From positions 125,302,001 to 125,366,000 of the forward strand of contig OZ024743.1 of NCBI GenBank assembly GCA_964016885.1: a stretch of DNA of 64,000 bases, written 5' to 3'. Origin of the DNA: Eledone cirrhosa (taxonomy: Eukaryota). Each line of letters starts with the position of its first letter. Position 1 is the stretch's first letter. Both the position numbers and the translations under genes were made by a program. This document shows positions 32,490 through 64,000 of the stretch, in pieces. The notes below the pieces were generated by a model. It had not been told where the DNA came from, ran no database searches, and saw only the letters and a list, made by a program, of their open reading frames with translations.

Positions 32490-32520
<31 letters not shown>

Positions 32521-33073: not shown

Positions 33074-33250
<177 letters not shown>

Positions 33251-33280
33251 ATATATAATATATATATATATATTTATATA

Positions 33281-33311
<31 letters not shown>

Positions 33312-33332
33312 ATATATATATATATATATATT

Positions 33333-33371
<39 letters not shown>

Positions 33372-33560
33372 ATATATATATATATATATATTTATATAAT
33401 ATATATATATATATATATTTATATAATATATATATATATATATATTTATATAATATATATATATATATATATTTATATAATATATATATATATATATATT
33501 TATATAATATATATATATATATATATTTATATAATATATATATATATATATATTTATATA

Positions 33561-33591
<31 letters not shown>

Positions 33592-33612
33592 ATATATATA
33601 TATATATATATT

Positions 33613-33659
<47 letters not shown>

Positions 33660-34577
33660 ATATATATATATATATATATTTATATAATATATATATATAT
33701 ATATATTTATATAATATATATATATATATTTATATAATATATATATATATATATATTTATATAATATATATATATATATTTATATAATATATATATATAT
33801 ATATATTTATATAATATATATATATATATTTATATAATATATATATTATATATATTTATATAATATATATATATATATATTTATATAATATATATATTAT
33901 ATATATTTATATAATATATATATTATATATATTTATATAATATATATATTATATATATTTATATAATATAAATATTATATATATTTATATAATATAAATA
34001 TTATATATATTTATATCATATATATATTATATATATTTATATCATATATATATTATATATATTTATATCATATATATATTATATATATTTATATCATATA
34101 TATATTATATATATTTATATTATATAAATATATATATTTATGTTATATATATATATATATATTTATATTATATATATATATATATATATATTTATATTAT
34201 ATATATATATATATATTTATGTTATATATATATATATATTTATATTATATATATATATATATATTTATATTATATTTATATATATATATTTATATTATAT
34301 ATATATTTGTTATATATATATATATATATTTATATAATATATATATATATATATATTTATATTATATTTATATTATATATATATATATATATTTATATAA
34401 TATATATATATATATATTTATATTATATATATATATATATATATTTATATTATATATATATATATATATATTTATATTATATATATATATATATATATTT
34501 ATATTATATATATATATATATATATTTATATTATATATATATATATATATATTTATATTATATATATATATTTATAT

Positions 34578-34611
<34 letters not shown>

Positions 34612-34630
34612 TATATTTATATATTTATAT

Positions 34631-34662
<32 letters not shown>

Positions 34663-34719
34663 TATATTATATATATATTTATATATATATATATATATTT
34701 ATATTATATATATATATAT

Positions 34720-34753
<34 letters not shown>

Positions 34754-34934
34754 ATTATATATATATTATATTATATATATTATATATATATTATATATAT
34801 TATATTATATATATTATATATATATATATATATTTATATTATATATATATTTATATTATATTATATATATATATTTATATTATATTTATATTATATAATT
34901 ATATTATATATATTTATATTATATATTATATATA

Positions 34935-39099: not shown

Positions 39100-39650
39100 G
39101 GAGACAGTAACGACGCCCAAAGATAAGACATGGAAGGACTTTGGGCTTAAGCTGGAATCCGACTTTAGATCAGCAAATATTGTTTTGACAAACCATCCGC
39201 CGACTTCGTAATAAGAAGCCTTCCTCCACACCTGCTACCAAGAACGCATCTGGGGTTCTCTCTTCGGTGAGGGGGAGAGAATACTTTGCTGATCTCCTAA
39301 ACCTGATCGCAACAGCATCTGATATACACGAGATGCATCTGGGAGTGATGACTAATCTCTTGGAGGCTGAGGTCACAAGAGCAATTAATGAGCTCAAATG
39401 TGGCAAGGCTGCTGGGGAGGGGGGGGGATATGAAATCCGACTCGAGATGTTAAAAGCCTTAAATAGAGTAGGTATTCTCTGGTTGACTCATGTGTGTCAG
39501 GTAGTCTAGATCTCTGGAAAGGCACGTAAACAATGGTAATTGCAAATGATAATACCAATTTTTCAAAAAGGGAGATAAGAGAGATTGTTCCAATTACATA
39601 GGGATCTCCTTGTTAAGCCTCTCCAGTAAAGTCTAAGCAAATTGGAGATG
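39100..39650 (+). mobile_element. Degenerate RTE-type LINE ORF2 fragment
   Basis: EVTRAINELKCGKAAG..EIRLEMLKAL..WLTHVCQV and KGDKRDCSNYIGISLLS motifs upstream of the RT. Confidence 0.75.
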
Positions 39651-39718
39651 CTGATAGTTAATTCAATTAGATAGTAAATTATGTAAAAAGCAGATGAAAT
39701 ATAGAATAAATATATATG

Positions 39719-40060
39719 AAGGCACATGGCTTAGTGGTTAGAGCATTGGCCTTGCAATCGAAAGGTTGTGAGTTCAATTCTCAGACCGGGTGATGTGTTG
39801 TTTCCTTGTGCAAGACACTTTATTTCACATTGCTCCAGTTTACTCAGCTGTAGAAATGAGATGATAGGGACTGGGGTCCATATCATTCCACTGCAAAGTA
39901 GTCATAGAGGTGCCACGGCAAAAAAGCACCCAGCACTCACTGTAAATGAGATTGGTGTTAGCAAGGGCATCCAGCTGTAGAAATCAAGCCAGAATCAGTT
40001 CCCGTCCCACCCTTGCAAGCAGGGAAAAAGCGGACGTAAAATGAAATGATGATGATGATA
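39719..40060 (+). mobile_element. tRNA-derived SINE with (GAT)n tail (repeated in each array unit)
   Basis: A box TGGCTTAGTGG, B box GAGTTCAATTC, AAGGGCATCCAGCTGTAGAAA core and (GAT)n tail. Confidence 0.8.
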
Positions 40061-40419
40061 TTTTCATGGTAAATGCTTTATCCCACATAATTATTTCACA
40101 TAATATCGAATCTATGAGATTTTGAAAGTATTTATTTTGAGAACAATACCTTAACATCAGTTTGAATGACCAGTTACAGCCAGTTTCAACAGAAAGAGGT
40201 AGAGAATTCTGGCCGGTTTGGGCCAGTTTAAACATTAAAGGGTTAAACCATAGTGTACAAGAAATCAAATGAAATAGAGGTGCAGAGACACTTGTGTCCC
40301 CCCCTAGCTGATACATTCACTAGTATTTATGGTTTTCACAAAGATGTTCATTCAAACTGGTGAAATTTCATGTGGTAAGAATACAATCAACATCTGTTGT
40401 GCAGTAAAATTATACTATC

Positions 40420-40700
40420 ACCTAGTCAAGTTTAATATCCAAGCAGCAGCCAATGGTTACCTGGTATTGCAACAAACAAAATAGTCAAGTCTCAATTCCA
40501 AGCAACAATCAAAGTGTGTTTATTACCTAGTATGTTGACAAACCACATAGATATATCTCATTTCCAACCAACAAAGGATTTTTATCATATAGTATGGCAA
40601 AAAAAAACACATAATCACGCCTCATTTCCAACCAACAAAGGCTATTTATGATCTAGTATGGTTACAAACCACATAGTCAAGTTTCATTTCCAACCAAACA
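40420..40700. repeat. Degenerate ~60-65 bp minisatellite inside each array unit
   Basis: Recurring ATAGTCAAGT.TCATTTCCAACCAACAAAGG..TAGTATG motifs, 4-5 copies. Confidence 0.7.
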
Positions 40701-41141
40701 TTTAGGAGGCATGTTAGGTGTAACAAATACAAATAAACAATCCCACTAGTTTTGAAAGATTTATCAACTTAATATCTCTTAATTGTATAGCCAGCCTGAA
40801 GGTTACCATGAAAACATTTATCATAGAAGATAAAATTCTATGAATTACTAGAGCCAAGTTTAACATGATGACAAAATATAGTTCTGGGTTTCATCCTACT
40901 ATGCAGCACACTAGACAAATGTCTTCTACTTTAAATTTGGGTTGGCCAAAGCTTTACAAGTGAATTTCGATAGATAGAAACTGTCTGGCAGCCATCAGAG
41001 AAAACATTCCGGTTTTAGGATGATAGACTAAATATGTTGCCCCAGTTAACATCATTATCTGGCCCTTAGGTACATTTAGCAGCACACACTGTTGTAAATA
41101 TTCAGGCTAGGTCTCCAATATGATTCTTCTCTTCCTCTTAC

Positions 41142-41156
41142 CAGTCTCGGAAGAAC
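41142..41156 (-). other. Candidate 15-nt microexon (repeated in each unit, e.g. 43997-44011)
   Basis: Minus strand reads ttattatttctttgcag|GTTCTTCCGAGACTG|gtaaga, with near-consensus acceptor and donor. Confidence 0.45.
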
Positions 41157-41465
41157 CTGCAAAGAAATAATAAGCATTCCCTTTTTTTCCTCAGACAAAA
41201 CATAAATAAATAAAAAGGAAATTTGTTATAAAATTGTTTTTATTGTATAATTTAAAATATATTTATACATATATATATTGGTATTTGTTGTTGTTGTTGG
41301 TGACATACACGCAGTCTAAATATTTATTCATGGTGTTTCCTCTAATATTGTAAAGAGTCCACTCTGATACAAAGAATTCATTTCTCACATCACCATGTGT
41401 ATAGAGACTACCACAAATAAATCAAGAATTGCCACACTGCAATTACAACTTTGATGAATTGCATA

Positions 41466-41501
<36 letters not shown>

Positions 41502-41505
<4 letters not shown>

Positions 41506-41823
41506 ATACTTTGGGAAGGTCATGCTGACAATAAAAACACACACACCTGTTGGTTTTCACTTCAATTTATTATAAATTTCCAGTTGGTTGGTTGCTTGAT
41601 TCAATAACCAGATGGTTGTTTATATATTGTCAAAGCTCTTTCGTCACACATACTGTGACTGGGTTTTTATTTTGTGTCTCTCCTTTGTTCTGTCCTACAC
41701 CATCTTGTTTTTGTGTGTTGACAACACACAAACCAACCAACTAGCTGGAAATTTATAAATTCAAGTGAAAACCAACAGGTGCATGTACTGTTATTTGCAG
41801 CAAGACACTCCCAAACTATAACA
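41502..41823. mobile_element. MITE with ~90-bp imperfect TIRs, TGT..ACA ends and ATAT flanks (Ginger-like), in each array unit
   Basis: ATAT|TGTTATACTTTGGGA...CACCTGTTGGTTTTCACTT matches AAGTGAAAACCAACAGGTG...TCCCAAACTATAACA|ATAT. Confidence 0.7.
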
Positions 41824-41992
41824 ATATCTGTTTCAACACATGCTTTCAGATAAGAAATCTTGCAAAACGAATTCAAAAACGAAGTATATATATGTGTGTG
41901 TGTGTGATGCCCCAGCATGGACTCAGCCTGTCAGCTGGAATATGTAACAGAATAATATATACATATATATATACTTCTTGTTGAAATATTGT

Positions 41993-42154
41993 TCACGTTC
42001 TTGGGGAATCTTTTGAGTCTTGATTAGAAGTAAAGTCATAAGGCTTCCACCAGTTTGAAAACTGTAAGACTTTCTGTCGTTGAACTTCAAACTTCTCATT
42101 ACGGCTTTTACGGAAAAGATACGTATCAGCATCAATCATACCTCCAATAATTTC
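41993..42154 (-). CDS. CWF19L2: CWF19-like protein 2 terminal coding exon, copy 1 (most distal; Thr variant)
   Basis: Acceptor ...cttggaacacag|. Translates EIIGGMIDADTYLFRKSRNEKFEVQRQKVLQFSNWWKPYDFTSNQDSKDSPRT*, matching the CwfJ C-terminus (EIIGGMLD...QFAQWWKPYDFT) of CWF19L2. Confidence 0.88.
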   Translation of the reverse strand, partial: EIIGGMIDADTYLFRKSRNEKFEVQRQKVLQFSNWWKPYDFTSNQDSKDSPRT

Positions 42155-44320
42155 CTGTGTTCCAAGAAGTAGAGGGTAAAAATATATCAGAAACTATCAT
42201 TATCAAAGTACTTGGAAGTAAACAAATTTGTCAATATATACATATTTTTTAAATGGTAAATACATATTTGTACAAAAACTGTACAAGATTCAGTGGAAAG
42301 TGTGTAAATAAATAAACATACTGACAAATGTAAAAATATCTTTTTTTTTACAGACTAAAATAGAGTGTATATGCTGGCTCAAGTTTCCATTCTAGTTGGA
42401 GTCACCCTCAGAAACTGTGTACAACTCTATCATTCCACAGAGAAATACTCAATTAATGACTTTATAAGCAAACCAAATAAGGCAGATAAGCAAATTGGAG
42501 ATGCTGATAGTTAATTCAATTAGATAGTAAATTATGTAAAAAGCAGATGAAATATAGAATAAATATATATATGAAGGCACATGGCTTAGTGGTTAGAGCA
42601 TTGGCCTTGCAATCGAAAGGTTGTGAGTTCAATTCTCAGACCGGGTGATGTGTTGTTTCCTTGTGCAAGACACTTTATTTCACATTGCTCCAGTTTACTC
42701 AGCTGTAGAAATGAGATGATAGGGACTGGGGTCCATATCATTCCACTGCAAATTAGTCATAGAGGTGCCACGGCAAAAAAGCACCCAGCACTCACTGTAA
42801 ATGAGATTGGTGTTAGCAAGGGCATCCAGCTGTAGAAATCAAGCCAGAATCAGTTCCCGTCCCACCCTTGCAAGCAGGGAAAAAGCGGACGTAAAATGAA
42901 ATGATGATGATGATATTTTCATGGTAAATGCTTTATCCCACATAATTATTTCACATAATATCGAATCTATGAGATTTTGAAAGTATTTATTTTGAGAACA
43001 ATACCTTAACATCAGTTTGAATGACCAGTTACAGCCAGTTTCAACAGAAAGAGGTAGAGAATTCTGGCCGGTTTGGGCCAGTTTAAACATTAAAGGGTTA
43101 AACCATAGTGTACAAGAAATCAAATGAAATAGAGGTGCAGAGACACTTGTGTCCCCCCCTAGCTGATACATTCACTAGTATTTATGGTTTTCACAAAGAT
43201 GTTCATTCAAACTGGTGAAATTTCATGTGGTAAGAATACAATCAACATCTGTTGTGCAGTAAAATTATACTATCACCTAGTCAAGTTTAATATCCAAGCA
43301 GCAGCCAATGGTTACCTGGTATTGCAACAAACAAAATAGTCAAGTCTCAATTCCAAGCAACAATCAAAGTGTGTTTATTACCTAGTATGTTGACAAACCA
43401 CATAGATATATCTCATTTCCAACCAACAAAGGATTTTTATCATATAGTATGGCAAAAAAAAACACATAATCACGCCTCATTTCCAACCAACAAAGGCTAT
43501 TTATGATCTAGTATGGTTACAAACCACATAGTCAAGTTTCATTTCCAACCAAACATTTAGGAGGCATGTTAGGTGTAACAAATACAAATAAACAATCCCA
43601 CTAGTTTTGAAAGATTTATCAACTTAATATCTCTTAATTGTATAGCCAGCCTGAAGGTTACCATGAAAACATTTATCATAGAAGATAAAATTCTATGAAT
43701 TACTAGAGCCAAGTTTAACATGATGACAAAATATAGTTCTGGGTTTCATCCTACTATGCAGCACACTAGACAAATGTCTTCTACTTTAAATTTGGGTTGG
43801 CCAAAGCTTTACAAGTGAATTTCGATAGATAGAAACTGTCTGGCAGCCATCAGAGAAAACATTCCGGTTTTAGGATGATAGACTAAATATGTTGCCCCAG
43901 TTAACATCATTATCTGGCCCTTAGGTACATTTAGCAGCACACACTGTTGTAAATATTCAGGCTAGGTCTCCAATATGATTCTTCTCTTCCTCTTACCAGT
44001 CTCGGAAGAACCTGCAAAGAAATAATAAGCATTCCCTTTTTTTCCTCAGACAAAACATAAATAAATAAAAAGGAAATTTGTTATAAAATTGTTTTTATTG
44101 TATAATTTAAAATATATTTATACATATATATATTGGTATTTGTTGTTGTTGTTGGTGACATACACGCAGTCTAAATATTTATTCATGGTGTTTCCTCTAA
44201 TATTGTAAAGAGTCCACTCTGATACAAAGAATTCATTTCTCACATCACCATGTGTATAGAGACTACCACAAATAAATCAAGAATTGCCACACTGCAATTA
44301 CAACTTTGATGAATTGCATA

Positions 44321-44360
<40 letters not shown>

Positions 44361-44847
44361 ATACTTTGGGAAGGTCATGCTGACAATAAAAACACACACA
44401 CCTGTTGGTTTTCACTTCAATTTATTATAAATTTCCAGTTGGTTGGTTGCTTGATTCAATAACCAGATGGTTGTTTATATATTGTCAAAGCTCTTTCGTC
44501 ACACATACTGTGACTGGGTTTTTATTTTGTGTCTCTCCTTTGTTCTGTCCTACACCATCTTGTTTTTGTGTGTTGACAACACACAAACCAACCAACTAGC
44601 TGGAAATTTATAAATTCAAGTGAAAACCAACAGGTGCATGTACTGTTATTTGCAGCAAGACACTCCCAAACTATAACAATATCTGTTTCAACACATGCTT
44701 TCAGATAAGAAATCTTGCAAAACGAATTCAAAAACGAAGTATATATATGTGTGTGTGTGTGATGCCCCAGCATGGACTCAGCCTGTCAGCTGGAATATGT
44801 AACAGAATAATATATACATATATATATACTTCTTGTTGAAATATTGT

Positions 44848-45009
44848 TCACGTTCTTGGGGAATCTTTTGAGTCTTGATTAGAAGTAAAGTCATAAGGCT
44901 TCCACCAGTTTGAAAACTGTAAGACTTTCTGTCGTTGAACTTCAAACTTCTCATTACGGCTTTTACGGAAAAGATACGTATCAGCATCAATCATACCTCC
45001 AATAATTTC
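44848..45009 (-). CDS. CWF19L2: CWF19L2 terminal exon, copy 2 (Thr variant)
   Basis: Same sequence as copy 1. Confidence 0.8.
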   Translation of the reverse strand, partial: EIIGGMIDADTYLFRKSRNEKFEVQRQKVLQFSNWWKPYDFTSNQDSKDSPRT

Positions 45010-47181
45010 CTGTGTTCCAAGAAGTAGAGGGTAAAAATATATCAGAAACTATCATTATCAAAGTACTTGGAAGTAAACAAATTTGTCAATATATACATAT
45101 TTTTTAAATGGTAAATACATATTTGTACAAAAACTGTACAAGATTCAGTGGAAAGTGTGTAAATAAATAAACATACTGACAAATGTAAAAATATCTTTTT
45201 TTTTACAGACTAAAATAGAGTGTATATGCTGGCTCAAGTTTCCATTCTAGTTGGAGTCACCCTCAGAAACTGTGTACAACTCTATCATTCCACAGAGAAA
45301 TACTCAATTAATGACTTTATAAGCAAACCAAATAAGGCAGATAAGCAAATTGGAGATGCTGATAGTTAATTCAATTAGATAGTAAATTATGTAAAAAGCA
45401 GATGAAATATAGAATAAATATATATATGAAGGCACATGGCTTAGTGGTTAGAGCATTGGCCTTGCAATCGAAAGGTTGTGAGTTCAATTCTCAGACCGGG
45501 TGATGTGTTGTTTCCTTGTGCAAGACACTTTATTTCACATTGCTCCAGTTTACTCAGCTGTAGAAATGAGATGATAGGGACTGGGGTCCATATCATTCCA
45601 CTGCAAATTAGTCATAGAGGTGCCACGGCAAAAAAGCACCCAGCACTCACTGTAAATGAGATTGGTGTTAGCAAGGGCATCCAGCTGTAGAAATCAAGCC
45701 AGAATCAGTTCCCGTCCCACCCTTGCAAGCAGGGAAAAAGCGGACGTAAAATGAAATGATGATGATGATATTTTCATGGTAAATGCTTTATCCCACATAA
45801 TTATTTCACATAATATCGAATCTATGAGATTTTGAAAGTATTTATTTTGAGAACAATACCTTAACATCAGTTTGAATGACCAGTTACAGCCAGTTTCAAC
45901 AGAAAGAGGTAGAGAATTCTGGCCGGTTTGGGCCAGTTTAAACATTAAAGGGTTAAACCATAGTGTACAAGAAATCAAATGAAATAGAGGTGCAGAGACA
46001 CTTGTGTCCCCCCCCCCCCCCTAGCTGATACATTCACTAGTATTTATGGTTTTCACAAAGATGTTCATTCAAACTGGTGAAATTTCATGTGGTAAGAATA
46101 CAATCAACATCTGTTGTGCAGTAAAATTATACTATCACCTAGTCAAGTTTAATATCCAAGCAGCAGCCAATGGTTACCTGGTATTGCAACAAACAAAATA
46201 GTCAAGTCTCAATTCCAAGCAACAATCAAAGTTTGTTTATTACCTAGTATGTTGACAAACCACATAGATATATCTCATTTCCAACCAATAAAGGATTTTT
46301 ATCATATAGTTTGGCAAAAAAAACACATAATCAAGCCTCATTTCCAACCAACAAAGGCTATTTATGATCTAGTATGGTTACAAACCACATAGTCAAGTCT
46401 CATTTCCAACCAAACATTTAGGAGGCATGTTAGGTGTAACAAATACAAATAAACAATCCCACTAGTTTTGAAAGATTTATCAACTTAATATCTCTTAATT
46501 GTATAGCCAGCCTGAAGGTTACCATGAAAACATTTATCATAGAAGATAAAATTCTATGAATTACTAGAGCCAAGTTTAACATGATGACAAAATATAGTTC
46601 TGGGTTTCATCCTACTATGCAGCACACTAGACAAATGTCTTCTACTTTAAATTTGGGTTGGCCAAAGCTTTACAAGTGAATTTCGATAGATAGAAACTGT
46701 CTGGCAGCCATCAGAGAAAACATTCCGGTTTTAGGATGATAGACTAAATATGTTGCCCCAGTTAACATCATTATCTGGCCCTTAGGTACATTTAGCAGCA
46801 CACACTGTTGTAAATATTCAGGCTAGGTCTCCAATATGATTCTTCTCTTCCTCTTACCAGTCTCGGAAGAACCTGCAAAGAAATAATAAGCATTCCCTTT
46901 TTTTCCTCAGACAAAACATAAATAAATAAAGAGGAAATTTGTTATAAAATTGTTTTTATTGTATAATTTAAAATAAATTTATACATATATATATTGGTAT
47001 TTGTTGTTGTTGTTGGTGACATACACGCAGTCTAAATATTTATTCATGGTGTTTCCTCTAATATTGTAAAGAGTCCACTCTGATACAAAGAATTCATTTC
47101 TCACATCACCATGTGTATAGAGACTACCACAAATAAATCAAGAATTGCCACACTGCAATTACAACTTTGATGAATTGCATA

Positions 47182-47221
<40 letters not shown>

Positions 47222-47708
47222 ATACTTTGGGAAGGTCATGCTGACAATAAAAACACACACACCTGTTGGTTTTCACTTCAATTTATTATAAATTTCCAGT
47301 TGGTTGGTTGCTTGATTCAATAACCAGATGGTTGTTTATATATTGTCAAAGCTCTTTCGTCACACATACTGTGACTGGGTTTTTATTTTGTGTCTCTCCT
47401 TTGTTCTGTCCTACACCATCTTGTTTTTGTGTGTTGACAACACACAAACCAACCAACTAGCTGGAAATTTATAAATTCAAGTGAAAACCAACAGGTGCAT
47501 GTACTGTTATTTGCAGCAAGACACTCCCAAACTATAACAATATCTGTTTCAACACATGCTTTCAGATAAGAAATCTTGCAAAACGAATTCAAAAACGAAG
47601 TATATATATGTGTGTGTGTGTGATGCCCCAGCATGGACTCAGCCTGTCAGCTGGAATATGTAATAGAATAATATATACATATATATATACTTCTTGTTGA
47701 AATATTGT

Positions 47709-47870
47709 TCACGTTCTTGGGGAATCTTTTGAGTCTTGATTAGAAGTAAAGTCATAAGGCTTCCACCAGTTTGAAAACTGTAAGACTTTCTGTCGTTGAA
47801 CTTCAAACTTCTCATTTCGGCTTTTACGGAAAAGATACGGATCAGCATCAATCATACCTCCAATGATTTC
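47709..47870 (-). CDS. CWF19L2: CWF19L2 terminal exon, copy 3 (Pro variant)
   Basis: EIIGGMIDADPYLFRK...; acceptor and frame intact. Confidence 0.8.
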   Translation of the reverse strand, partial: EIIGGMIDADPYLFRKSRNEKFEVQRQKVLQFSNWWKPYDFTSNQDSKDSPRT

Positions 47871-50049
47871 CTGTGTTCCAAGAAGTAGACGGTAAAAATA
47901 TATCAGAAACTATCATTATCAAAGTACTTGGAAGTAAACAAATTTGTCAATATATACATATTTTTTAAATGGTAAATACATATTTGTACAAAAACTGTAC
48001 AAGATTCAGTGGAAAGTGTGTAAATAAATAAACATACTGACAAATGTAAAAATATCTTTTTTTTTACAGACTAAAATAGAGTGAATATGCTGGCTCAAGT
48101 TTCCATTCTAGTTGGAGTCACCCTCAGAAACTGTGTACAACTCTATCATTCCACAGAGAAATACTCAATTAATGACTTTATAAGCAAACCAAATAAGGCA
48201 GATAAGCAAATTGGAGATGCTGATAGTTAATTCAATTAGATAGTAAATTATGTAAAAAGCAGATGAAATATAGAATAAATATATATATGAAGGCACATGG
48301 CTTAGTGGTTAGAGCATTGGCCTTGCAATCGAAAGGTTGTGAGTTCAATTCTCAGACCGGGTGATGTGTTGTTTCCTTGTGCAAGACACTTTATTTCACA
48401 TTGCTCCAGTTTACTCAGCTGTAGAAATGAGATGATAGGGACTGGGGTCCATATCATTCCACTGCAAAGTAGTCATAGAGGTGCCACGGCAAAAAAGCAC
48501 CCAGCACTCACTGTAAATGAGATTGGTGTTAGCAAGGGCATCCAGCTGTAGAAATCAAGCCAGAATCAGTTCCCGTCCCACCCTTGCAAGCAGGGAAAAA
48601 GCGGACGTAAAATGAAATGATGATGATGATATTTTCATGGTAAATGCTTTATCCCACATAATTATTTCACATAATATCGAATCTATGAGATTTTGAAAGT
48701 ATTTATTTTGAGAACAATACCTTAACATCAGTTTGAATGACCAGTTACAGCCAGTTTCAACAGAAAGAGGTAGAGAATTCTGGCCGGTTTGGGCCAGTTT
48801 AAACATTAAAGGGTTAAACCATAGTGTACAAGAAATCAAATGAAATAGAGGTGCAGAGACACTTGTGTCCCCCCCCCCCCCCCCCCTAGCTGATACATTC
48901 ACTAGTATTTATGGTTTTCACAAAGATGTTCATTCAAACTGGTGAAATTTCATGTGGTAAGAATACAATCAACATCTGTTGTGCAGTAAAATTATACTAT
49001 CACCTAGTCAAGTTTAATATCCAAGCAGCAGCCAATGGTTACCTGGTATTGCAACAAACAAAATAGTCAAGTCTCAATTCCAAGCAACAATCAAAGTGTG
49101 TTTATTACCTAGTATGTTGACAAACCACATAGATATATCTCATTTCCAACCAATAAAGGATTTTTATCATATAGTTTGGCAAAAAAAACACATAATCAAG
49201 CCTCATTTCCAACCAACAAAGGCTATTTATGATCTAGTATGGTTACAAACCACATAGTCAAGTCTCATTTCCAACCAAACATTTAGGAGGCATGTTAGGT
49301 GTAACAAATACAAATAAACAATCCCACTAGTTTTGAAAGATTTATCAACTTAATATCTCTTAATTGTATAGCCAGCCTGAAGGTTACCATGAAAACATTT
49401 ATCATAGAAGATAAAATTCTATGAATTACTAGAGCCAAGTTTAACATGATGACAAAATATAGTTCTGGGTTTCATCCTACTATGCAGCACACTAGACAAA
49501 TGTCTTCTACTTTAAATTTGGGTTGGCCAAAGCTTTACAAGTGAATTTCGATAGATAGAAACTGTCTGGCAGCCATCAGAGAAAACATTCCGGTTTTAGG
49601 ATGATAGACTAAATATGTTGCCCCAGTTAACATCATTATCTGGCCCTTAGGTACATTTAGCAGCACACACTGTTGTAAATATTCAGGCTAGGTCTCCAAT
49701 ATGATTCTTCTCTTCCTCTTACCAGTCTCGGAAGAACCTGCAAAGAAATAATAAGCATTCCCTTTTTTTCCTCAGACAAAACATAAATAAATAAAAAGGA
49801 AATTTGTTATAAAATTGTTTTTATTGTATAATTTAAAATAAATTTATACATATATATATTGGTATTTGTTGTTGTTGTTGGTGACATACACGCAGTCTAA
49901 ATATTTATTCATGGTGTTTCCTCTAATATTGTAAAGAGTCCACTCTGATACAAAGAATTCATTTCTCACATCACCATGTGTATAGAGACTACCACAAATA
50001 AATCAAGAATTGCCACACTGCAATTACAACTTTGATGAATTGCATAAAA

Positions 50050-50086
<37 letters not shown>

Positions 50087-50573
50087 ATACTTTGGGAAGG
50101 TCATGCTGACAATAAAAACACACACACCTGTTGGTTTTCACTTCAATTTATTATAAATTTCCAGTTGGTTGGTTGCTTGATTCAATAACCAGATGGTTGT
50201 TTATATATTGTCAAAGCTCTTTCGTCACACATACTGTGACTGGGTTTTTATTTTGTGTCTCTCCTTTGTTCTGTCCTACACCATCTTGTTTTTGTGTGTT
50301 GACAACACACAAACCAACCAACTAGCTGGAAATTTATAAATTCAAGTGAAAACCAACAGGTGCATGTACTGTTATTTGCAGCAAGACACTCCCAAACTAT
50401 AACAATATCTGTTTCAACACATGCTTTCAGATAAGAAATCTTGCAAAACGAATTCAAAAACGAAGTATATATATGTGTGTGTGTGTGATGCCCCAGCATG
50501 GACTCAGCCTGTCAGCTGGAATATGTAATAGAATAATATATACATATATATATACTTCTTGTTGAAATATTGT

Positions 50574-50735
50574 TCACGTTCTTGGGGAATCTTTTGAGTC
50601 TTGATTAGAAGTAAAGTCATAAGGCTTCCACCAGTTTGAAAACTGTAAGACTTTCTGTCGTTGAACTTCAAACTTCTCATTTCGGCTTTTACGGAAAAGA
50701 TACGGATCAGCATCAATCATACCTCCAATGATTTC
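50574..50735 (-). CDS. CWF19L2: CWF19L2 terminal exon, copy 4
   Basis: Pro variant, intact. Confidence 0.8.
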   Translation of the reverse strand, partial: EIIGGMIDADPYLFRKSRNEKFEVQRQKVLQFSNWWKPYDFTSNQDSKDSPRT

Positions 50736-52907: not shown

Positions 52908-52977
<70 letters not shown>

Positions 52978-53464
52978 ATACTTTGGGAAGGTCATGCTGA
53001 CAATAAAAACACACACACCTGTTGGTTTTCACTTCAATTTATTATAAATTTCCAGTTGGTTGGTTGCTTGATTCAATAACCAGATGGTTGTTTATATATT
53101 GTCAAAGCTCTTTCGTCACACATACTGTGACTGGGTTTTTATTTTGTGTCTCTCCTTTGTTCTGTCCTACACCATCTTGTTTTTGTGTGTTGACAACACA
53201 CAAACCAACCAACTAGCTGGAAATTTATAAATTCAAGTGAAAACCAACAGGTGCATGTACTGTTATTTGCAGCAAGACACTCCCAAACTATAACAATATC
53301 TGTTTCAACACATGCTTTCAGATAAGAAATCTTGCAAAACGAATTCAAAAACGAAGTATATATATGTGTGTGTGTGTGATGCCCCAGCATGGACTCAGCC
53401 TGTCAGCTGGAATATGTAATAGAATAATATATACATATATATATACTTCTTGTTGAAATATTGT

Positions 53465-53626
53465 TCACGTTCTTGGGGAATCTTTTGAGTCTTGATTAGA
53501 AGTAAAGTCATAAGGCTTCCACCAGTTTGAAAACTGTAAGACTTTCTGTCGTTGAACTTCAAACTTCTCATTTCGGCTTTTACGGAAAAGATACGGATCA
53601 GCATCAATCATACCTCCAATGATTTC
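53465..53626 (-). CDS. CWF19L2: CWF19L2 terminal exon, copy 5
   Basis: Pro variant, intact. Confidence 0.8.
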   Translation of the reverse strand, partial: EIIGGMIDADPYLFRKSRNEKFEVQRQKVLQFSNWWKPYDFTSNQDSKDSPRT

Positions 53627-56304
53627 CTGTGTTCCAAGAAGTAGACGGTAAAAATATATCAGAAACTATCATTATCAAAGTACTTGGAAGTAAACAAATT
53701 TGTCAATATATACATATTTTTTAAATGGTAAATACATATTTGTACAAAAACTGTACAAGATTCAGTGGAAAGTGTGTAAATAAATAAACATACTGACAAA
53801 TGTAAAAATATCTTTTTTTTTACAGACTAAAATAGAGTGAATATGCTGGCTCAAGTTTCCATTCTAGTTGGAGTCACCCTCAGAAACTGTGTACAACTCT
53901 ATCATTCCACAGAGAAATACTCAATTAATGACTTTATAAGCAAACCAAATAAGGCAGATAAGCAAATTGGAGATGCTGATAGTTAATTCAATTAGATAGT
54001 AAATTATGTAAAAAGCAGATGAAATATAGAATAAATATATATGAAGGCACATGGCCTAGTGGTTAGAGCATTGGCCTTGCAATCGAAAGGTTGTGAGTTC
54101 AATTCTCAGACCGGGTGATGTGTTGTTTCCTTGTGCAAGACACTTTATTTCACATTGCTCCAGTTTACTCAGCTGTAGAAATGAGATGATAGGGACTGGG
54201 GTCCATATCATTCCACTGCAAAGTAGTCATAGAGGTCCCACGGCAAAAAAGCACCCAGCACTCACTGTAAATGAGATTGGTGTTAGCAAGGGCATCCAGC
54301 TGTAGAAATCAAGCCAGAATCAGTTCCCGTCCCACCCTTGCAAGCAGGGAAAAAGCGGACGTAAAATGAAATGATGATGATGATATTTTCATGGTAAATG
54401 CTTTATCCCACATAATTATTTCACATAATATCGAATCTATGAGATTTTGAAAGTATTTATTTTGAGAACAATACCTTAACATCAGTTTGAATGACCAGTT
54501 ACAGCCAGTTTCAACAGAAAGAGGTAGAGAATTCTGGCCGGTTTGGGCCAGTTTAAACATTAAAGGGTTAAACCATAGTGTACAAGAAATCAAATGAAAT
54601 AGAGGTGCAGAGACACTTGTCCCCCCCCCCCCCTAGCTGATACATTCACTAGTATTTATGGTTTTCACAAAGATGTTCATTCAAACTGGTGAAATTTCAT
54701 GTGGTAAGAATACAATCAACATCTGTTGTGCAGTAAAATTATACTATCACCTAGTCAAGTTTAATATCCAAGCAGCAGCCAATGGTTACCTGGTATTGCA
54801 ACAAACAAAATAGTCAAGTGTCAATTCCAAGCAACAATCAAAGTTTGTTTATTACCTAGTATGTTGACAAACCACATAGATATATCTCATTTCCAACCAA
54901 TAAAGGATTTTTATCATATAGTTTGGCAAAAAAAACACATAATCAAGCCTCATTTCCAACCAACAAAGGCTATTTATGATCTAGTATGGTTACAAACCAC
55001 ATAGTCAAGTCTCATTTCCAACCAAACATTTAGGAGGCATGTTAGGTGTAACAAATACAAATAAACAATCCCACTAGTTTTGAAAGATTTATCAACTTAA
55101 TATCTCTTAATTGTATAGCCAGCCTGAAGGTTACCATGAAAACATTTATCATAGAAGATAAAATTCTATGAATTACTAGAGCCAAGTTTAACATGATGAC
55201 AAAATATAGTTCTGGGTTTCATCCTACTATGCAGCACACTAGACAAATGTCTTCTACTTTAAATTTGGGTTGGCCAAAGCTTTACAAGTGAATTTCGATA
55301 GATAGAAACTGTCTGGCAGCCATCAGAGAAAACATTCCGGTTTTAGGATGATAGACTAAATATGTTGCCCCAGTTAACATCATTATCTGGCCCTTAGGTA
55401 CATTTAGCAGCACACACTGTTGTAAATATTCAGGCTAGGTCTCCAATATGATTCTTCTCTTCCTCTTACCAGTCTCGGAAGAACCTGCAAAGAAATAATA
55501 AGCATTCCCTTTTTTTCCTCAGACAAAACATAAATAAATAAAAAGGAAATTTGTTATAAAATTGTTTTTATTGTATAATTTAAAATATATTTATACATAT
55601 ATATATTGGTATTTGTTGTTGTTGTTGGTGACATACACGCAGTCTAAATATTTATTCATGGTGTTTCCTCTAATATTGTAAAGAGTCCACTCTGATACAA
55701 AGAATTCATTTCTCACATCACCATGTGTATAGAGACTACCACAAATAAATCAAGAATTGCCACACTGCAATTACAACTTTGATGAATTGCATAAAAAAAA
55801 AATATATATATATTGTTATACTTTGGGAAGGTCATGCTGACAATAAAAACACACACACCTGTTGGTTTTCACTTCAATTTATTATAAATTTCCAGTTGGT
55901 TGGTTGCTTGATTCAATAACCAGATGGTTGTTTATATATTGTCAAAGCTCTTTCGTCACACATACTGTGACTGGGTTTTTATTTTGTGTCTCTCCTTTGT
56001 TCTGTCCTACACCATCTTGTTTTTGTGTGTTGACAACACACAAACCAACCAACTAGCTGGAAATTTATAAATTCAAGTGAAAACCAACAGGTGCATGTAC
56101 TGTTATTTGCAGCAAGACACTCCCAAACTATAACAATATCTGTTTCAACACATGCTTTCAGATAAGAAATCTTGCAAAACGAATTCAAAAACGAAGTATA
56201 TATATGTGTGTGTGTGTGATGCCCCAGCATGGACTCAGCCTGTCAGCTGGAATATGTAATAGAATAATATATACATATATATATACTTCTTGTTGAAATA
56301 TTGT

Positions 56305-56466
56305 TCACGTTCTTGGGGAATCTTTTGAGTCTTGATTAGAAGTAAAGTCATAAGGCTTCCACCAGTTTGAAAACTGTAAGACTTTCTGTCGTTGAACTTC
56401 AAACTTCTCATTTCGGCTTTTACGGAAAAGATACGGATCAGCATCAATCATACCTCCAATGATTTC
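56305..56466 (-). CDS. CWF19L2: CWF19L2 terminal exon, copy 6
   Basis: Pro variant, intact. Confidence 0.8.
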   Translation of the reverse strand, partial: EIIGGMIDADPYLFRKSRNEKFEVQRQKVLQFSNWWKPYDFTSNQDSKDSPRT

Positions 56467-59146
56467 CTGTGTTCCAAGAAGTAGACGGTAAAAATATATC
56501 AGAAACTATCATTATCAAAGTACTTGGAAGTAAACAAATTTGTCAATATATACATATTTTTTAAATGGTAAATACATATTTGTACAAAAACTGTACAAGA
56601 TTCAGTGGAAAGTGTGTAAATAAATAAACATACTGACAAATGTAAAAATATCTTTTTTTTTACAGACTAAAATAGAGTGAATATGCTGGCTCAAGTTTCC
56701 ATTCTAGTTGGAGTCACCCTCAGAAACTGTGTACAACTCTATCATTCCACAGAGAAATACTCAATTAATGACTTTATAAGCAAACCAAATAAGGCAGATA
56801 AGCAAATTGGAGATGCTGATAGTTAATTCAATTAGATAGTAAATTATGTAAAAAGCAGATGAAATATAGAATAAATATATATGAAGGCACATGGCCTAGT
56901 GGTTAGAGCATTGGCCTTGCAATCGAAAGGTTGTGAGTTCAATTCTCAGACCGGGTGATGTGTTGTTTCCTTGTGCAAGACACTTTATTTCACATTGCTC
57001 CAGTTTACTCAGCTGTAGAAATGAGATGATAGGGACTGGGGTCCATATCATTCCACTGCAAAGTAGTCATAGAGGTCCCACGGCAAAAAAGCACCCAGCA
57101 CTCACTGTAAATGAGATTGGTGTTAGCAAGGGCATCCAGCTGTAGAAATCAAGCCAGAATCAGTTCCCGTCCCACCCTTGCAAGCAGGGAAAAAGCGGAC
57201 GTAAAATGAAATGATGATGATGATATTTTCATGGTAAATGCTTTATCCCACATAATTATTTCACATAATATCGAATCTATGAGATTTTGAAAGTATTTAT
57301 TTTGAGAACAATACCTTAACATCAGTTTGAATGACCAGTTACAGCCAGTTTCAACAGAAAGAGGTAGAGAATTCTGGCCGGTTTGGGCCAGTTTAAACAT
57401 TAAAGGGTTAAACCATAGTGTACAAGAAATCAAATGAAATAGAGGTGCAGAGACACTTGTCCCCCCCCCCCCCCCTAGCTGATACATTCACTAGTATTTA
57501 TGGTTTTCACAAAGATGTTCATTCAAACTGGTGAAATTTCATGTGGTAAGAATACAATCAACATCTGTTGTGCAGTAAAATTATACTATCACCTAGTCAA
57601 GTTTAATATCCAAGCAGCAGCCAATGGTTACCTGGTATTGCAACAAACAAAATAGTCAAGTGTCAATTCCAAGCAACAATCAAAGTTTGTTTATTACCTA
57701 GTATGTTGACAAACCACATAGATATATCTCATTTCCAACCAATAAAGGATTTTTATCATATAGTTTGGCAAAAAAAACACATAATCAAGCCTCATTTCCA
57801 ACCAACAAAGGCTATTTATGATCTAGTATGGTTACAAACCACATAGTCAAGTCTCATTTCCAACCAAACATTTAGGAGGCATGTTAGGTGTAACAAATAC
57901 AAATAAACAATCCCACTAGTTTTGAAAGATTTATCAACTTAATATCTCTTAATTGTATAGCCAGCCTGAAGGTTACCATGAAAACATTTATCATAGAAGA
58001 TAAAATTCTATGAATTACTAGAGCCAAGTTTAACATGATGACAAAATATAGTTCTGGGTTTCATCCTACTATGCAGCACACTAGACAAATGTCTTCTACT
58101 TTAAATTTGGGTTGGCCAAAGCTTTACAAGTGAATTTCGATAGATAGAAACTGTCTGGCAGCCATCAGAGAAAACATTCCGGTTTTAGGATGATAGACTA
58201 AATATGTTGCCCCAGTTAACATCATTATCTGGCCCTTAGGTACATTTAGCAGCACACACTGTTGTAAATATTCAGGCTAGGTCTCCAATATGATTCTTCT
58301 CTTCCTCTTACCAGTCTCGGAAGAACCTGCAAAGAAATAATAAGCATTCCCTTTTTTTCCTCAGACAAAACATAAATAAATAAAAAGGAAATTTGTTATA
58401 AAATTGTTTTTATTGTATAATTTAAAATATATTTATACATATATATATTGGTATTTGTTGTTGTTGTTGGTGACATACACGCAGTCTAAATATTTATTCA
58501 TGGTGTTTCCTCTAATATTGTAAAGAGTCCACTCTGATACAAAGAATTCATTTCTCACATCACCATGTGTATAGAGACTACCACAAATAAATCAAGAATT
58601 GCCACACTGCAATTACAACTTTGATGAATTGCATAAAAAAAAAATATATATATATTGTTATACTTTGGGAAGGTCATGCTGACAATAAAAACACACACAC
58701 CTGTTGGTTTTCACTTCAATTTATTATAAATTTCCAGTTGGTTGGTTGCTTGATTCAATAACCAGATGGTTGTTTATATATTGTCAAAGCTCTTTCGTCA
58801 CACATACTGTGACTGGGTTTTTATTTTGTGTCTCTCCTTTGTTCTGTCCTACACCATCTTGTTTTTGTGTGTTGACAACACACAAACCAACCAACTAGCT
58901 GGAAATTTATAAATTCAAGTGAAAACCAACAGGTGCATGTACTGTTATTTGCAGCAAGACACTCCCAAACTATAACAATATCTGTTTCAACACATGCTTT
59001 CAGATAAGAAATCTTGCAAAACGAATTCAAAAACGAAGTATATATATGTGTGTGTGTGTGATGCCCCAGCATGGACTCAGCCTGTCAGCTGGAATATGTA
59101 ATAGAATAATATATACATATATATATACTTCTTGTTGAAATATTGT

Positions 59147-59308
59147 TCACGTTCTTGGGGAATCTTTTGAGTCTTGATTAGAAGTAAAGTCATAAGGCTT
59201 CCACCAGTTTGAAAACTGTAAGACTTTCTGTCGTTGAACTTCAAACTTCTCATTTCGGCTTTTACGGAAAAGATACGGATCAGCATCAATCATACCTCCA
59301 ATGATTTC
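59147..59308 (-). CDS. CWF19L2: CWF19L2 terminal exon, copy 7
   Basis: Pro variant, intact. Confidence 0.8.
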   Translation of the reverse strand, partial: EIIGGMIDADPYLFRKSRNEKFEVQRQKVLQFSNWWKPYDFTSNQDSKDSPRT

Positions 59309-61476
59309 CTGTGTTCCAAGAAGTAGACGGTAAAAATATATCAGAAACTATCATTATCAAAGTACTTGGAAGTAAACAAATTTGTCAATATATACATATT
59401 TTTTAAATGGTAAATACATATTTGTACAAAAACTGTACAAGATTCAGTGGAAAGTGTGTAAATAAATAAACATACTGACAAATGTAAAAATATCTTTTTT
59501 TTTACAGACTAAAATAGAGTGAATATGCTGGCTCAAGTTTCCATTCTAGTTGGAGTCACCCTCAGAAACTGTGTACAACTCTATCATTCCACAGAGAAAT
59601 ACTCAATTAATGACTTTATAAGCAAACCAAATAAGGCAGATAAGCAAATTGGAGATGCTGATAGTTAATTCAATTAGATAGTAAATTATGTAAAAAGCAG
59701 ATGAAATATAGAATAAATATATATATGAAGGCACATGGCTTAGTGGTTAGAGCATTGGCCTTGCAATCGAAAGGTTGTGAGTTCAATTCTCAGACCGGGT
59801 GATGTGTTGTTTCCTTGTGCAAGACACTTTATTTCACATTGCTCCAGTTTACTCAGCTGTAGAAATGAGATGATAGGGACTGGGGTCCATATCATTCCAC
59901 TGCAAAGTAGTCATAGAGGTGCCACGGCAAAAAAGCACCCAGCACTCACTGTAAATGAGATTGGTGTTAGCAAGGGCATCCAGCTGTAGAAATCAAGCCA
60001 GAATCAGTTCCCGTCCCACCCTTGCAAGCAGGGAAAAAGCGGACGTAAAATGAAATGATGATGATGATATTTTCATGGTAAATGCTTTATCCCACATAAT
60101 TATTTCACATAATATCGAATCTATGAGATTTTGAAAGTATTTATTTTGAGAACAATACCTTAACATCAGTTTGAATGACCAGTTACAGCCAGTTTCAACA
60201 GAAAGAGGTAGAGAATTCTGGCCGGTTTGGGCCAGTTTAAACATTAAAGGGTTAAACCATAGTGTACAAGAAATCAAATGAAATAGAGGTGCAGAGACAC
60301 TTGTGTCCCCCCCCCCCTAGCTGATACATTCACTAGTATTTATGGTTTTCACAAAGATGTTCATTCAAACTGGTGAAATTTCATGTGGTAAGAATACAAT
60401 CAACATCTGTTGTGCAGTAAAATTATACTATCACCTAGTCAAGTTTAATATCCAAGCAGCAGCCAATGGTTACCTGGTATTGCAACTAACAAAATAGTCA
60501 AGTCTCAATTCCAAGCAACAATCAAAGTTTGTTTATTACCTAGTATGTTGACAAACCACATAGATATATCTCATTTCCAACCAACAAAGGATTTTTATCA
60601 TATCGTATGGCAAAAAAAAACACATAATCACGCCTCATTTCCAACCAACAAAGGCTATTTATGATCTAGTATGGTTACAAACCACATAGTCAAGTTTCAT
60701 TTCCAACCAAACATTTAGGAGGCATGTTAGGTGTAACAAATACAAATAAACAATCCCACTAGTTTTGAAAGATTTATCAACTTAATATCTCTTAATTGTA
60801 TAGCCAGCCTGAAGGTTACCATGAAAACATTTATCATAGAAGATAAAATTCTATGAATTACTAGAGCCAAGTTTAACATGATGACAAAATATAGTTCTGG
60901 GTTTCATCCTACTATGCAGCACACTAGACAAATGTCTTCTACTTTAAATTTGGGTTGGCCAAAGCTTTACAAGTGAATTTCGATAGATAGAAACTGTCTG
61001 GCAGCCATCAGAGAAAACATTCCGGTTTTAGGATGATAGACTAAATATGTTGCCCCAGTTAACATCATTATCTGGCCCTTAGGTACATTTAGCAGCACAC
61101 ACTGTTGTAAATATTCAGGCTAGGTCTCCAATATGATTCTTCTCTTCCTCTTACCAGTCTCGGAAGAACCTGCAAAGAAATAATAAGCATTCCCTTTTTT
61201 TCCTCAGACAAAACATAAATAAATAAAAAGGAAATTTGTTATAAAATTGTTTTTATTGTATAATTTAAAATATATTTATACATATATATATTGGTATTTG
61301 TTGTTGTTGTTGGTGACATACACGCAGTCTAAATATTTATTCATGGTGTTTCCTCTAATATTGTAAAGAGTCCACTCTGATACAAAGAATTCATTTCTCA
61401 CATCACCATGTGTATAGAGACTACCACAAATAAATCAAGAATTGCCACACTGCAATTACAACTTTGATGAATTGCA

Positions 61477-61533
<57 letters not shown>

Positions 61534-62020
61534 ATACTTTGGGAAGGTCATGCTGACAATAAAAACACACACACCTGTTGGTTTTCACTTCAATTTATTA
61601 TAAATTTCCAGTTGGTTGGTTGCTTGATTCAATAACCAGATGGTTGTTTATATATTGTCAAAGCTCTTTCGTCACACATACTGTGACTGGGTTTTTATTT
61701 TGTGTCTCTCCTTTGTTCTGTCCTACACCATCTTGTTTTTGTGTGTTGACAACACACAAACCAACCAACTAGCTGGAAATTTATAAATTCAAGTGAAAAC
61801 CAACAGGTGCATGTACTGTTATTTGCAGCAAGACACTCCCAAACTATAACAATATCTGTTTCAACACATGCTTTCAGATAAGAAATCTTGCAAAACGAAT
61901 TCAAAAACGAAGTATATATATGTGTGTGTGTGTGATGCCCCAGCATGGACTCAGCCTGTCAGCTGGAATATGTAATAGAATAATATATACATATATATAT
62001 ACTTCTTGTTGAAATATTGT

Positions 62021-62182
62021 TCACGTTCTTGGGGAATCTTTTGAGTCTTGATTAGAAGTAAAGTCATAAGGCTTCCACCAGTTTGAAAACTGTAAGACTT
62101 TCTGTCGTTGAACTTCAAACTTCTCATTTCGGCTTTTACGGAAAAGATACGGATCAGCATCAATCATACCTCCAATGATTTC
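62021..62182 (-). CDS. CWF19L2: CWF19L2 terminal exon, copy 8
   Basis: Pro variant, intact. Confidence 0.8.
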   Translation of the reverse strand, partial: EIIGGMIDADPYLFRKSRNEKFEVQRQKVLQFSNWWKPYDFTSNQDSKDSPRT

Positions 62183-64000
62183 CTGTGTTCCAAGAAGTAG
62201 ACGGTAAAAATATATCAGAAACTATCATTATCAAAGTACTTGGAAGTAAACAAATTTGTCAATATATACATATTTTTTAAATGGTAAATACATATTTGTA
62301 CAAAAACTGTACAAGATTCAGTGGAAAGTGTGTAAATAAATAAACATACTGACAAATGTAAAAATATCTTTTTTTTTACAGACTAAAATAGAGTGAATAT
62401 GCTGGCTCAAGTTTCCATTCTAGTTGGAGTCACCCTCAGAAACTGTGTACAACTCTATCATTCCACAGAGAAATACTCAATTAATGACTTTATAAGCAAA
62501 CCAAATAAGGCAGATAAGCAAATTGGAGATGCTGATAGTTAATTCAATTAGATAGTAAATTATGTAAAAAGCAGATGAAATATAGAATAAATATATATGA
62601 AGGCACATGGCCTAGTGGTTAGAGCATTGGCCTTGCAATCGAAAGGTTGTGAGTTCAATTCTCAGACCGGGTGATGTGTTGTTTCCTTGTGCAAGACACT
62701 TTATTTCACATTGCTCCAGTTTACTCAGCTGTAGAAATGAGATGATAGGGACTGGGGTCCATATCATTCCACTGCAAAGTAGTCATAGAGGTCCCACGGC
62801 AAAAAAGCACCCAGCACTCACTGTAAATGAGATTGGTGTTAGCAAGGGCATCCAGCTGTAGAAATCAAGCCAGAATCAGTTCCCGTCCCACCCTTGCAAG
62901 CAGGGAAAAAGCGGACGTAAAATGAAATGATGATGATGATATTTTCATGGTAAATGCTTTATCCCACATAATTATTTCACATAATATCGAATCTATGAGA
63001 TTTTGAAAGTATTTATTTTGAGAACAATACCTTAACATCAGTTTGAATGACCAGTTACAGCCAGTTTCAACAGAAAGAGGTAGAGAATTCTGGCCGGTTT
63101 GGGCCAGTTTAAACATTAAAGGGTTAAACCATAGTGTACAAGAAATCAAATGAAATAGAGGTGCAGAGACACTTGTGTCCCCCCCCCCCTAGCTGATACA
63201 TTCACTAGTATTTATGGTTTTCACAAAGATGTTCATTCAAACTGGTGAAATTTCATGTGGTAAGAATACAATCAACATCTGTTGTGCAGTAAAATTATAC
63301 TATCACCTAGTCAAGTTTAATATCCAAGCAGCAGCCAATGGTTACCTGGTATTGCAACAAACAAAATAGTCAAGTGTCAATTCCAAGCAACAATCAAAGT
63401 TTGTTTATTACCTAGTATGTTGACAAACCACATAGATATATCTCATTTCCAACCAATAAAGGATTTTTATCATATAGTTTGGCAAAAAAAACACATAATC
63501 AAGCCTCATTTCCAACCAACAAAGGCTATTTATGATCTAGTATGGTTACAAACCACATAGTCAAGTCTCATTTCCAACCAAACATTTAGGAGGCATGTTA
63601 GGTGTAACAAATACAAATAAACAATCCCACTAGTTTTGAAAGATTTATCAACTTAATATCTCTTAATTGTATAGCCAGCCTGAAGGTTACCATGAAAACA
63701 TTTATCATAGAAGATAAAATTCTATGAATTACTAGAGCCAAGTTTAACATGATGACAAAATATAGTTCTGGGTTTCATCCTACTATGCAGCACACTAGAC
63801 AAATGTCTTCTACTTTAAATTTGGGTTGGCCAAAGCTTTACAAGTGAATTTCGATAGATAGAAACTGTCTGGCAGCCATCAGAGAAAACATTCCGGTTTT
63901 AGGATGATAGACTAAATATGTTGCCCCAGTTAACATCATTATCTGGCCCTTAGGTACATTTAGCAGCACACACTGTTGTAAATATTCAGGCTAGGTCTCC

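Follow-up and report, generated by a model that had tools for sequence, protein, structure and literature searches.

Unequal recombination of the Alu-Alu type takes place between dispersed copies of a short interspersed nuclear element (SINE) and leaves a duplication bounded by two copies of the same family and orientation, with a hybrid element at each junction. Tandem repetition of coding or splice-site sequence has been described for the human gene-bearing macrosatellites TAF11-Like, SST1, PRR20, ZAV and D4Z4 (PMC3018141), for the 3′ variable regions of Drosophila pip, PGRP-LC and CG42235, in which terminal cassettes are used alternatively and pairings were tested experimentally (PMC9013439, PMC6191721), and for amphioxus "mirages", which are tandem repeats of intron–exon boundaries (PMC3087553). 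Here we analyze a stretch of 64,000 nucleotides from Eledone cirrhosa (GCA_964016885.1, contig OZ024743.1, positions 125,302,001 to 125,366,000, forward strand), hereafter the window, in which the last exon of CWF19L2 is repeated in tandem together with its flanks. The product of this gene encloses the branch point of the lariat as the spliceosome terminates (PMC13736545). The evidence favors, with a probability of about 0.75, a young array seeded by SINEs in which the proximal exon is in use and the distal copies are unselected passengers.

This locus resembles products of the Alu-Alu type in the two copies that apparently bound the duplication and in the hybrid element, but differs in a later expansion to many units and in the loss of the original distal flank. 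Like the human macrosatellites, it consists of kilobase-sized, head-to-tail, near-identical units at one locus with coding sequence inside, although its unit lacks a promoter and holds, from the conserved single-copy gene beside it, only the last exon with the 3′ flank (PMC3018141). With pip, PGRP-LC and CG42235 it shares tandem duplicated terminal cassettes behind one donor and an inverted pair resembling a docking site and its selectors, here known from sequence alone; unlike the cassettes of those genes, however, the CWF19L2 copies are 99–100% identical, young, and represented only by the proximal one in a transcript-like contig (PMC9013439, PMC6191721). The likeness to mirages lies in splice signals repeated apparently without disturbance of splicing, in length instability, and in boundary units that escape homogenization, as units 16 and 17 do here, whereas mirages, as described for amphioxus, measure 10–160 bp and contain one boundary and the present unit is 2.86 kb long with a whole exon, a stop and poly(A) hexamers (PMC3087553). 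No paper on this locus or on a cephalopod counterpart was found in a search that left aside the supplementary tables of genome papers.

Extent of the array and identity of the gene

An earlier reading of the window, made from its letters only (the sequence-only reading), had reported at least 8.5 tandem units of ~2.85 kb, each complete one with an acceptor, a 53-codon last exon and a stop on the minus strand. The array is in fact larger, with 17 full units of ~2.86 kb (range 2793–2891 bp, n = 17) plus a 427-bp partial unit at 39635–88699, of which the window holds units 1–8 complete and part of unit 9 (39635..64000). It extends 24.7 kb beyond the window to contig position 125390699, and no N gap interrupts it, as the following 200 kb of contig show; coordinates above 64000 extend the numbering of the window into the rest of the contig, and adding 125302000 gives the contig position. 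Units are numbered from left to right. With the gene on the minus strand, unit 17 is therefore the proximal one and unit 1 the distal one. Unit anchors in the window fall at 39635, 42488, 45343, 48204, 51069, 53960, 56800, 59642 and 62516, with spacings of 2840–2891 bp. The eight complete exon copies in the window, all on the minus strand and ending with that at 62021–62182, each have 53 codons followed by TGA, with a pyrimidine tract and a CAG acceptor in front. Arranged head to tail at one locus, the units differ pairwise by 0–28 substitutions (99.0–100% identical by substitutions). Genome-wide searches with the exon peptide (17 matches among 20 scored candidates) and with a unique flank segment of 441 bp (17 matches over the full length among 41 listed) placed all of these in the array and found no dispersed or second-locus copies.

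The earlier assignment of the peptide to the CwfJ C-terminus of CWF19L2 was also confirmed, with matches to Pfam CwfJ_C_2 (PF04676; E 1e-8, 36.3 bits, cut-off 28.8), to residues 848–892 of human CWF19L2 (chain 6id0_U; E 1.7e-12) and, at 84–88%, to named octopod CWF19L2 proteins (three matches among six candidates). Searching with the O. sinensis protein by tblastn recovered 16 upstream exons, each once, from 144583 to 92037; residues ~434–467 of that protein had no tblastn match at the locus. Exons for CwfJ_C_1 and the N-terminus thus lie upstream, colinear and in frame with the last exon, and GT/AG sites are visible next to most of the matches. The penultimate exon (contig 125394037-125394138) has a phase-0 donor in frame with 17/17 last-exon copies, the remainder of the gene reaches to about contig position 125446583, and no further CWF19L2 match was found within 56 kb to the left. 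Dosage tuning, which the sequence-only reading had entertained, is rejected, since the promoter side and 16 upstream exons are single-copy and only the 3′ end of the gene is amplified, so that CWF19L2 dosage is unchanged.

Copy number in sequencing reads

Five of the 15 read runs listed for the stretch were examined (X1, X4, X5, X13 and X14); contig depth in these is an approximate measure, and X1 may come from the assembly's own source animal, so it is not independent. Contigs of X1 on unique parts of the unit have depths of 66.9 and 73, against 10.8, 9.33 and 7.76 on the single-copy flank intron, where they show 0 differences from the assembly over 2.8 kb. Single-copy depth had been named beforehand as the mark of an assembly artefact; the units lie instead at 6–9 times the flank and are multi-copy. 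An artefactual multiplication of a single-copy exon might be suspected from a depth below the expectation for 17 copies and from the presence, 4.7 kb from the array, of a gapped TA satellite of 18.5 kb, but it is exceedingly improbable given that depth ratio, the 29 informative variants common to several units, and the majority DNA contigs of X1, which carry distal haplotypes (units 6/7/9/15, with the exact C-run of unit 15) and not that of unit 17. Depth and haplotypes together exclude it, unless the runs were mislabelled.

Seventeen units would predict mean 31-mer multiplicities of 16.4 and 14.4, whereas the observed ratios are 6.2–9.4, and read depth implies 7.0–10.2 units per haploid genome, not 17. 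These values fit a long allele of 17 units (a 17 + 1 heterozygote), two merged haplotypes, or the sequencing of a different animal. That the assembly overstates the real array, having joined two allelic arrays of ~7–10 units in tandem, has in our estimate somewhat less than an even chance. The number implied by depth is about half of 17, the identity of the flank contigs to the assembly suggests similar haplotypes on both homologues, and units 2–6 resemble units 11–15 at a lag of nine (mean 3.8 substitutions; permutation p 0.053), but that p value is borderline and such a similarity could also come from block duplication within one array, and the assembled array runs without a gap. Moreover, the same approximate depth is predicted by the heterozygote or by an animal with a shorter allele. 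Merging of haplotypes would be compatible with a passenger array, because it concerns copy number only. In the restriction-site-associated DNA (RAD) runs X13 and X14 the array/flank background ratios are 23 and 6, respectively, without one stacked flank bin and 2.9 and 1.0 with it, so these runs are not counted in support of the array in other animals, and a single X13 read at two unit-2 sites shows unit-1/2/11 alleles, which is too thin to count.

Origin and age of the array

From left to right, the unit begins with 64 bp of intron and a SINE-like element of 361 bp; 1.9 kb of 3′ flank comes next, and the exon and more intron complete it. Another copy of the SINE lies in the true intron at the right end of the array, and its tail marks the exact limit of homology. 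Between the unit SINE and the intronic SINE there are 12 differences in 361 sites, compared with 0.9% over the remainder of unit 17 (Poisson p 2e-4), and the intronic SINE is 97–99% identical to unrelated dispersed copies but 96.1% to the neighbouring unit SINE. Relative to the column majority of 42 dispersed copies, taken as the best matches to the two SINEs, there are eight private departures in the unit SINE and four in the intronic SINE, and the one departure common to both (column 11) falls in the AT-rich 5′ flank, upstream of the first site at which the two differ. Judged by these departures, the two are independent insertions of the same family and orientation that bound the duplication, which would make the unit the interval between SINEs, a signature of unequal recombination. 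We infer that the crossover lay near the 5′ edge of the SINE and that the unit SINE is a hybrid, its left flank derived from the intron and its body from an insertion other than the intronic copy.

At its distal end the array cuts into a dispersed repeat that we take, from its reading frame, to resemble a long interspersed nuclear element (LINE); no Pfam match was found for it. Dispersed copies of this repeat continue past the junction in 7/7 examined, and their continuation agrees with the start of the unit at ~8/11 bases. The junction is likely the product of a microhomology-mediated deletion that removed the original distal flank. If the ancestral locus carried two SINEs of like orientation at a distance of 2.85 kb, one in the last intron and one ~1.9 kb past the stop, misaligned crossing-over near their 5′ edges could have yielded the first duplicate; further unequal crossing-over and gene conversion, to which the mosaic units point, would then have expanded and shuffled the array, and a later microhomology deletion into the LINE-like repeat would have taken away its original distal end.

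The four-gamete test was failed by 60/406 informative site pairs, and a mosaic structure can be seen in units 10, 12 and 16, as is expected from unequal crossing-over and conversion. Units 1–15 are on average 8.3 substitutions apart (0.29%), and unit 17 differs from them by a mean of 24.7 (0.9%). At 2.4e-9 per site per generation, a rate estimated for another octopod (PMC7656900), the implied ages are ~0.6 and ~1.9 million generations respectively, which are underestimates if gene conversion acted. In X5, a run from another species, contigs on the exon and flank have 17 differences in 261 bp and 46 in 452, a divergence of ~7–10% from the array, and depths of 16.5 and 17.7 compared with 15.6–24.5 for the six other listed X5 contigs, which suggests that the related species is single-copy for exon and flank.

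Use of the exon copies

The passenger array favored here starts from one gene with one phase-0 donor and 17 near-identical units of acceptor, exon and 3′ flank that are multi-copy in reads. The first acceptor and poly(A) signals reached by polymerase would be those of unit 17, splicing and cleavage would commit there, and units 16 to 1 would lie in a post-cleavage or untranscribed zone. No run on record for the stretch is listed as RNA; X4, which has no library record, is treated as transcript-like from its contig structure. A contig of 2845 nt has only 174 nt on the window stretch (44838-45011), corresponding to the exon plus two bases common to the acceptor and the donor-side exon end, and the 2521 nt before the exon compare with 2481 coding nt in the O. 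sinensis orthologue. At the proximal locus, the bins with the last and penultimate exons have depths of 9.43 and 5.73, in agreement with the 9.59 and 5.62 that a single contig of depth 18.4 would give. The contig is likely a spliced mRNA. It differs from unit 2 by two substitutions and 0 gaps, a count that fits one of the 17 units, namely unit 17, and the adjoining X4 3′ untranslated region (UTR) contig (depth 22.8) carries unit-16/17 alleles.

Several points weigh against this account. X4 is not on record as RNA, its sample differs from the DNA runs and is perhaps another animal, and it is one transcript sample, with tissues and stress beyond its scope. The splice joint is not among the listed X4 joints (130 further joints are not shown), and the diagnostic base at exon position 6 is deduced from the difference count and is not displayed. 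Because contigs follow the majority path only, they would hide any minor use of distal exons. Another X4 contig (40541-41218, depth 6.37), located 775–1452 nt past the stop, has difference counts that fit units 4, 6, 7, 9, 10 and 15 (6/17) and not unit 17, its alleles being mostly not displayed, and it could be distal-unit mRNA or another allele. As to the origin, the excess of SINE differences is weaker against the intron part alone (~4/300 sites vs 12/361), and the ancestral SINE pair is a reconstruction, the original downstream flank being lost in the assembly. The distal-fitting contig could be explained simply by DNA carry-over or by read-through, in either case multiplied by the number of copies; its type is also near the majority path in DNA, and an intronic X4 contig of depth 3.1 shows background of this kind.

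The sequence-only reading had further proposed that the copies serve as alternative last exons or allow 3′ UTR tuning, and had offered a neutral copy-number variant as the other option. The former finds little in its favor, as the transcript-like contig fits only the proximal copy (1/17), and there would be little to tune in units that are 99.0–100% identical and of which 12/17 encode the same peptide as the proximal copy. The latter is the better supported option, and the distal exons show no sign of selection. The exceptions to the proximal peptide are Pro11Thr in units 1, 2 and 11 and Lys37Gln in units 9 and 10; Pro11 is kept in 3/3 octopod orthologues, human and worm, and Lys37 in three octopods and human, with Glu in worm. 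No literature was found on a structural role of human P858/W861 (numbering from alignment with human CWF19L2). Variable sites number 5/162 in the exon and 34/2689 elsewhere (Fisher p 0.067, the exon tending to be the more variable), and 2/5 exon changes are non-synonymous. Alleles that tell units apart in the exon lie at positions 6, 31, 54, 109 and 150. Conservation is no higher in the exon than in its flanks, and no diverged cassettes kept by purifying selection to give distinct products could be recognized.

It is very unlikely, in our view, that the distal copies persist because they serve as spare terminal exons or poly(A) sites for the rescue of read-through transcripts, or as a chromatin or termination buffer. 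Every unit does keep the acceptor, frame, stop and AATAAA hexamers, and sequence of distal type is present in X4, but intact acceptors are no evidence of function because intactness is expected at a divergence of 0.3–0.9%: the chance of no change in the acceptor AG is 0.97 and only ~0.09 nonsense changes are expected. In addition, one spare would suffice and the related species appears single-copy.

Possible RNA pairing in the last intron

The last intron contains a repeat resembling a miniature inverted-repeat transposable element (MITE), 842 nt upstream of acceptor 17. All units carry it in the opposite orientation (87% over 159 bp), so that it has 17 complementary partners. This raises the possibility, which we consider unlikely, of alternative last exons selected by competing RNA pairing, in which the intronic element would dock and the unit copies would act as selectors; pairing with unit k would loop out copies 17 to k and allow the donor to reach the next acceptor, which lies ~760 nt past the selector. 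For the unit 17 copy this would loop out exon 17 and place acceptor 16 another 759 nt further. The arrangement resembles the model described for PGRP-LC and pip (PMC6191721), and all 17 cassettes have an intact acceptor in frame with one donor. The predicted duplex has −205.6 kcal/mol in 4/4 units tested, but selectors of equal strength and products that are mostly identical would give selection little to act on, and the arms are dispersed repeats, for which a chance inverted match occurs in 7% (at least 150 bp) to 17% (at least 100 bp) of 843 overlapping 3.3-kb windows nearby. The first selector is 1811 nt past the stop, and transcription would pass five AATAAA hexamers before reaching it. 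Of the X4 contigs, the low-depth one fits distal units and the spliced-like one fits unit 17 only.

It is quite unlikely that the locus represents a transposon-made docking/selector system of the pip or Dscam style at birth, in which a SINE pair would have duplicated the exon and, by this duplication, the inverted MITE-like pair on either side of it would have become one intronic docking site and 17 competing selectors. If this were true, a core spliceosome-disassembly gene could sample distal last exons, including the Pro11Thr and Lys37Gln variants.

Features of the unit and of the window

Coordinates of the features are collected in Table 1. The SINE label was given by eye, from a head resembling Pol III boxes and thousands of dispersed candidates, and ARAGORN found no tRNA gene in the unit; the MITE label was likewise given by eye, from TTAA-type ends. 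AATAAA hexamers in unit 1 occur at ~322, 422, 665, 749 and 1469 nt past the stop, and at corresponding places in 17/17 units; in unit 17 the distances are ~328, 440, 692, 776 and 1495 nt.

Table 1. Positions of repeats, exon copies and other features (window numbering unless marked as contig; per-unit features as in unit 1)
Feature	Position	Strand	Comment
Penelope-like retroelement (presumed)	12117-15056	+	GC-rich (59%)
Degenerate (TA)n satellite	16405-34934		18.5 kb
Gap of 200 N	20412-20611		inside the (TA)n satellite
Open segment	35539-35766	+	75 codons, AG/GT flanks
LINE-like dispersed repeat	39450..39644	+	cut at distal array boundary 39634/39635
SINE-like element, per unit	39699..40059	+	includes ~20 bp of AT-rich flank and (ATG)n tail
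Truncated MITE-like dispersed element, per unit	40060..40250	.	inverted relative to the last-intron copy
Minisatellite, per unit	40471..40697	.	63-64-bp period, ~3.6 copies
3′ UTR inverted repeat	41498..41827	-	two ~100-bp arms, 82% complementary
Last-exon copy 1	41993..42154	-	most distal; Pro11Thr variant; copy quoted by the sequence-only reading
3′ end of last intron, per unit	42155..42487	-	acceptor, pyrimidine tract, branch-point-like motif
Last-exon copies 2-8 (starts)	44848, 47709, 50574, 53465, 56305, 59147, 62021	-	copy at 44848 with Pro11Thr
Last-exon copy 17	contig 125389873-125390034	-	proximal; beyond the window
Intronic SINE	88337-88699		right end of array
Last-intron MITE-like repeat	88876-89031		inverted relative to the unit copies

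In unit 17 the inverted repeat of the 3′ UTR has a predicted fold of −135.9 kcal/mol (z −10.6). X4 shows two T>C changes on the plus strand (A>G on the mRNA) in the 3′ UTR of this unit, at L035:2136 and 2140, in the hairpin arm that corresponds to 41731-41827 in unit 1. Both sites are UAG triplets, unpaired in the predicted hairpin and facing C on the other arm, and the G form is present at neither in any of the 17 aligned units (0/17). Set beside the site preferences of ADAR, these changes are likely adenosine-to-inosine (A-to-I) editing, or alternatively an allele of another animal.

The intron part of unit 17 has lost ~95 bp near 88100, at a point 66 nt upstream of its acceptor. The lost segment is kept in the distal units, and an X5 contig from the other species runs 24 bp into it, so unit 17, the likely working copy, is in the derived state. 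In 13/17 units (3–10 and 12–16; for example at 47890) the pyrimidine tract has a C-to-G change, which may slightly weaken the acceptors of those units.

Elsewhere in the window, the (TA)n satellite contains small repeat insertions and ends 4.7 kb from the array. The retroelement, which we take to be Penelope-like, has a reverse-transcriptase frame split over several frames (PF00078, E 6e-5, below the cut-off) and, after it, a further frame with a GIY-YIG-like motif recognized by eye. The open segment has one match in the genome and no Pfam match, and may be an exon of a convergent gene.

Implications

If the distal copies are passengers, pairs of mobile elements can build an exon-bearing macrosatellite without altering the product of a conserved gene, and cephalopod assemblies would have to be annotated, and copy numbers called from them, with caution. 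The locus also offers a natural test, with up to 17 near-identical acceptors and poly(A) regions in a row, marked by single-nucleotide polymorphisms, which could show how strictly "first come, first served" rules the choice of terminal exon. It could likewise show whether duplication alone creates competing RNA pairings, a by-product raised as an idea, and left as an open question, in the account of the Drosophila cassettes (PMC9013439). Use of the Pro11Thr or Lys37Gln copies is hypothetical, but could matter given the role of CWF19L2 at the branch point (PMC13736545).

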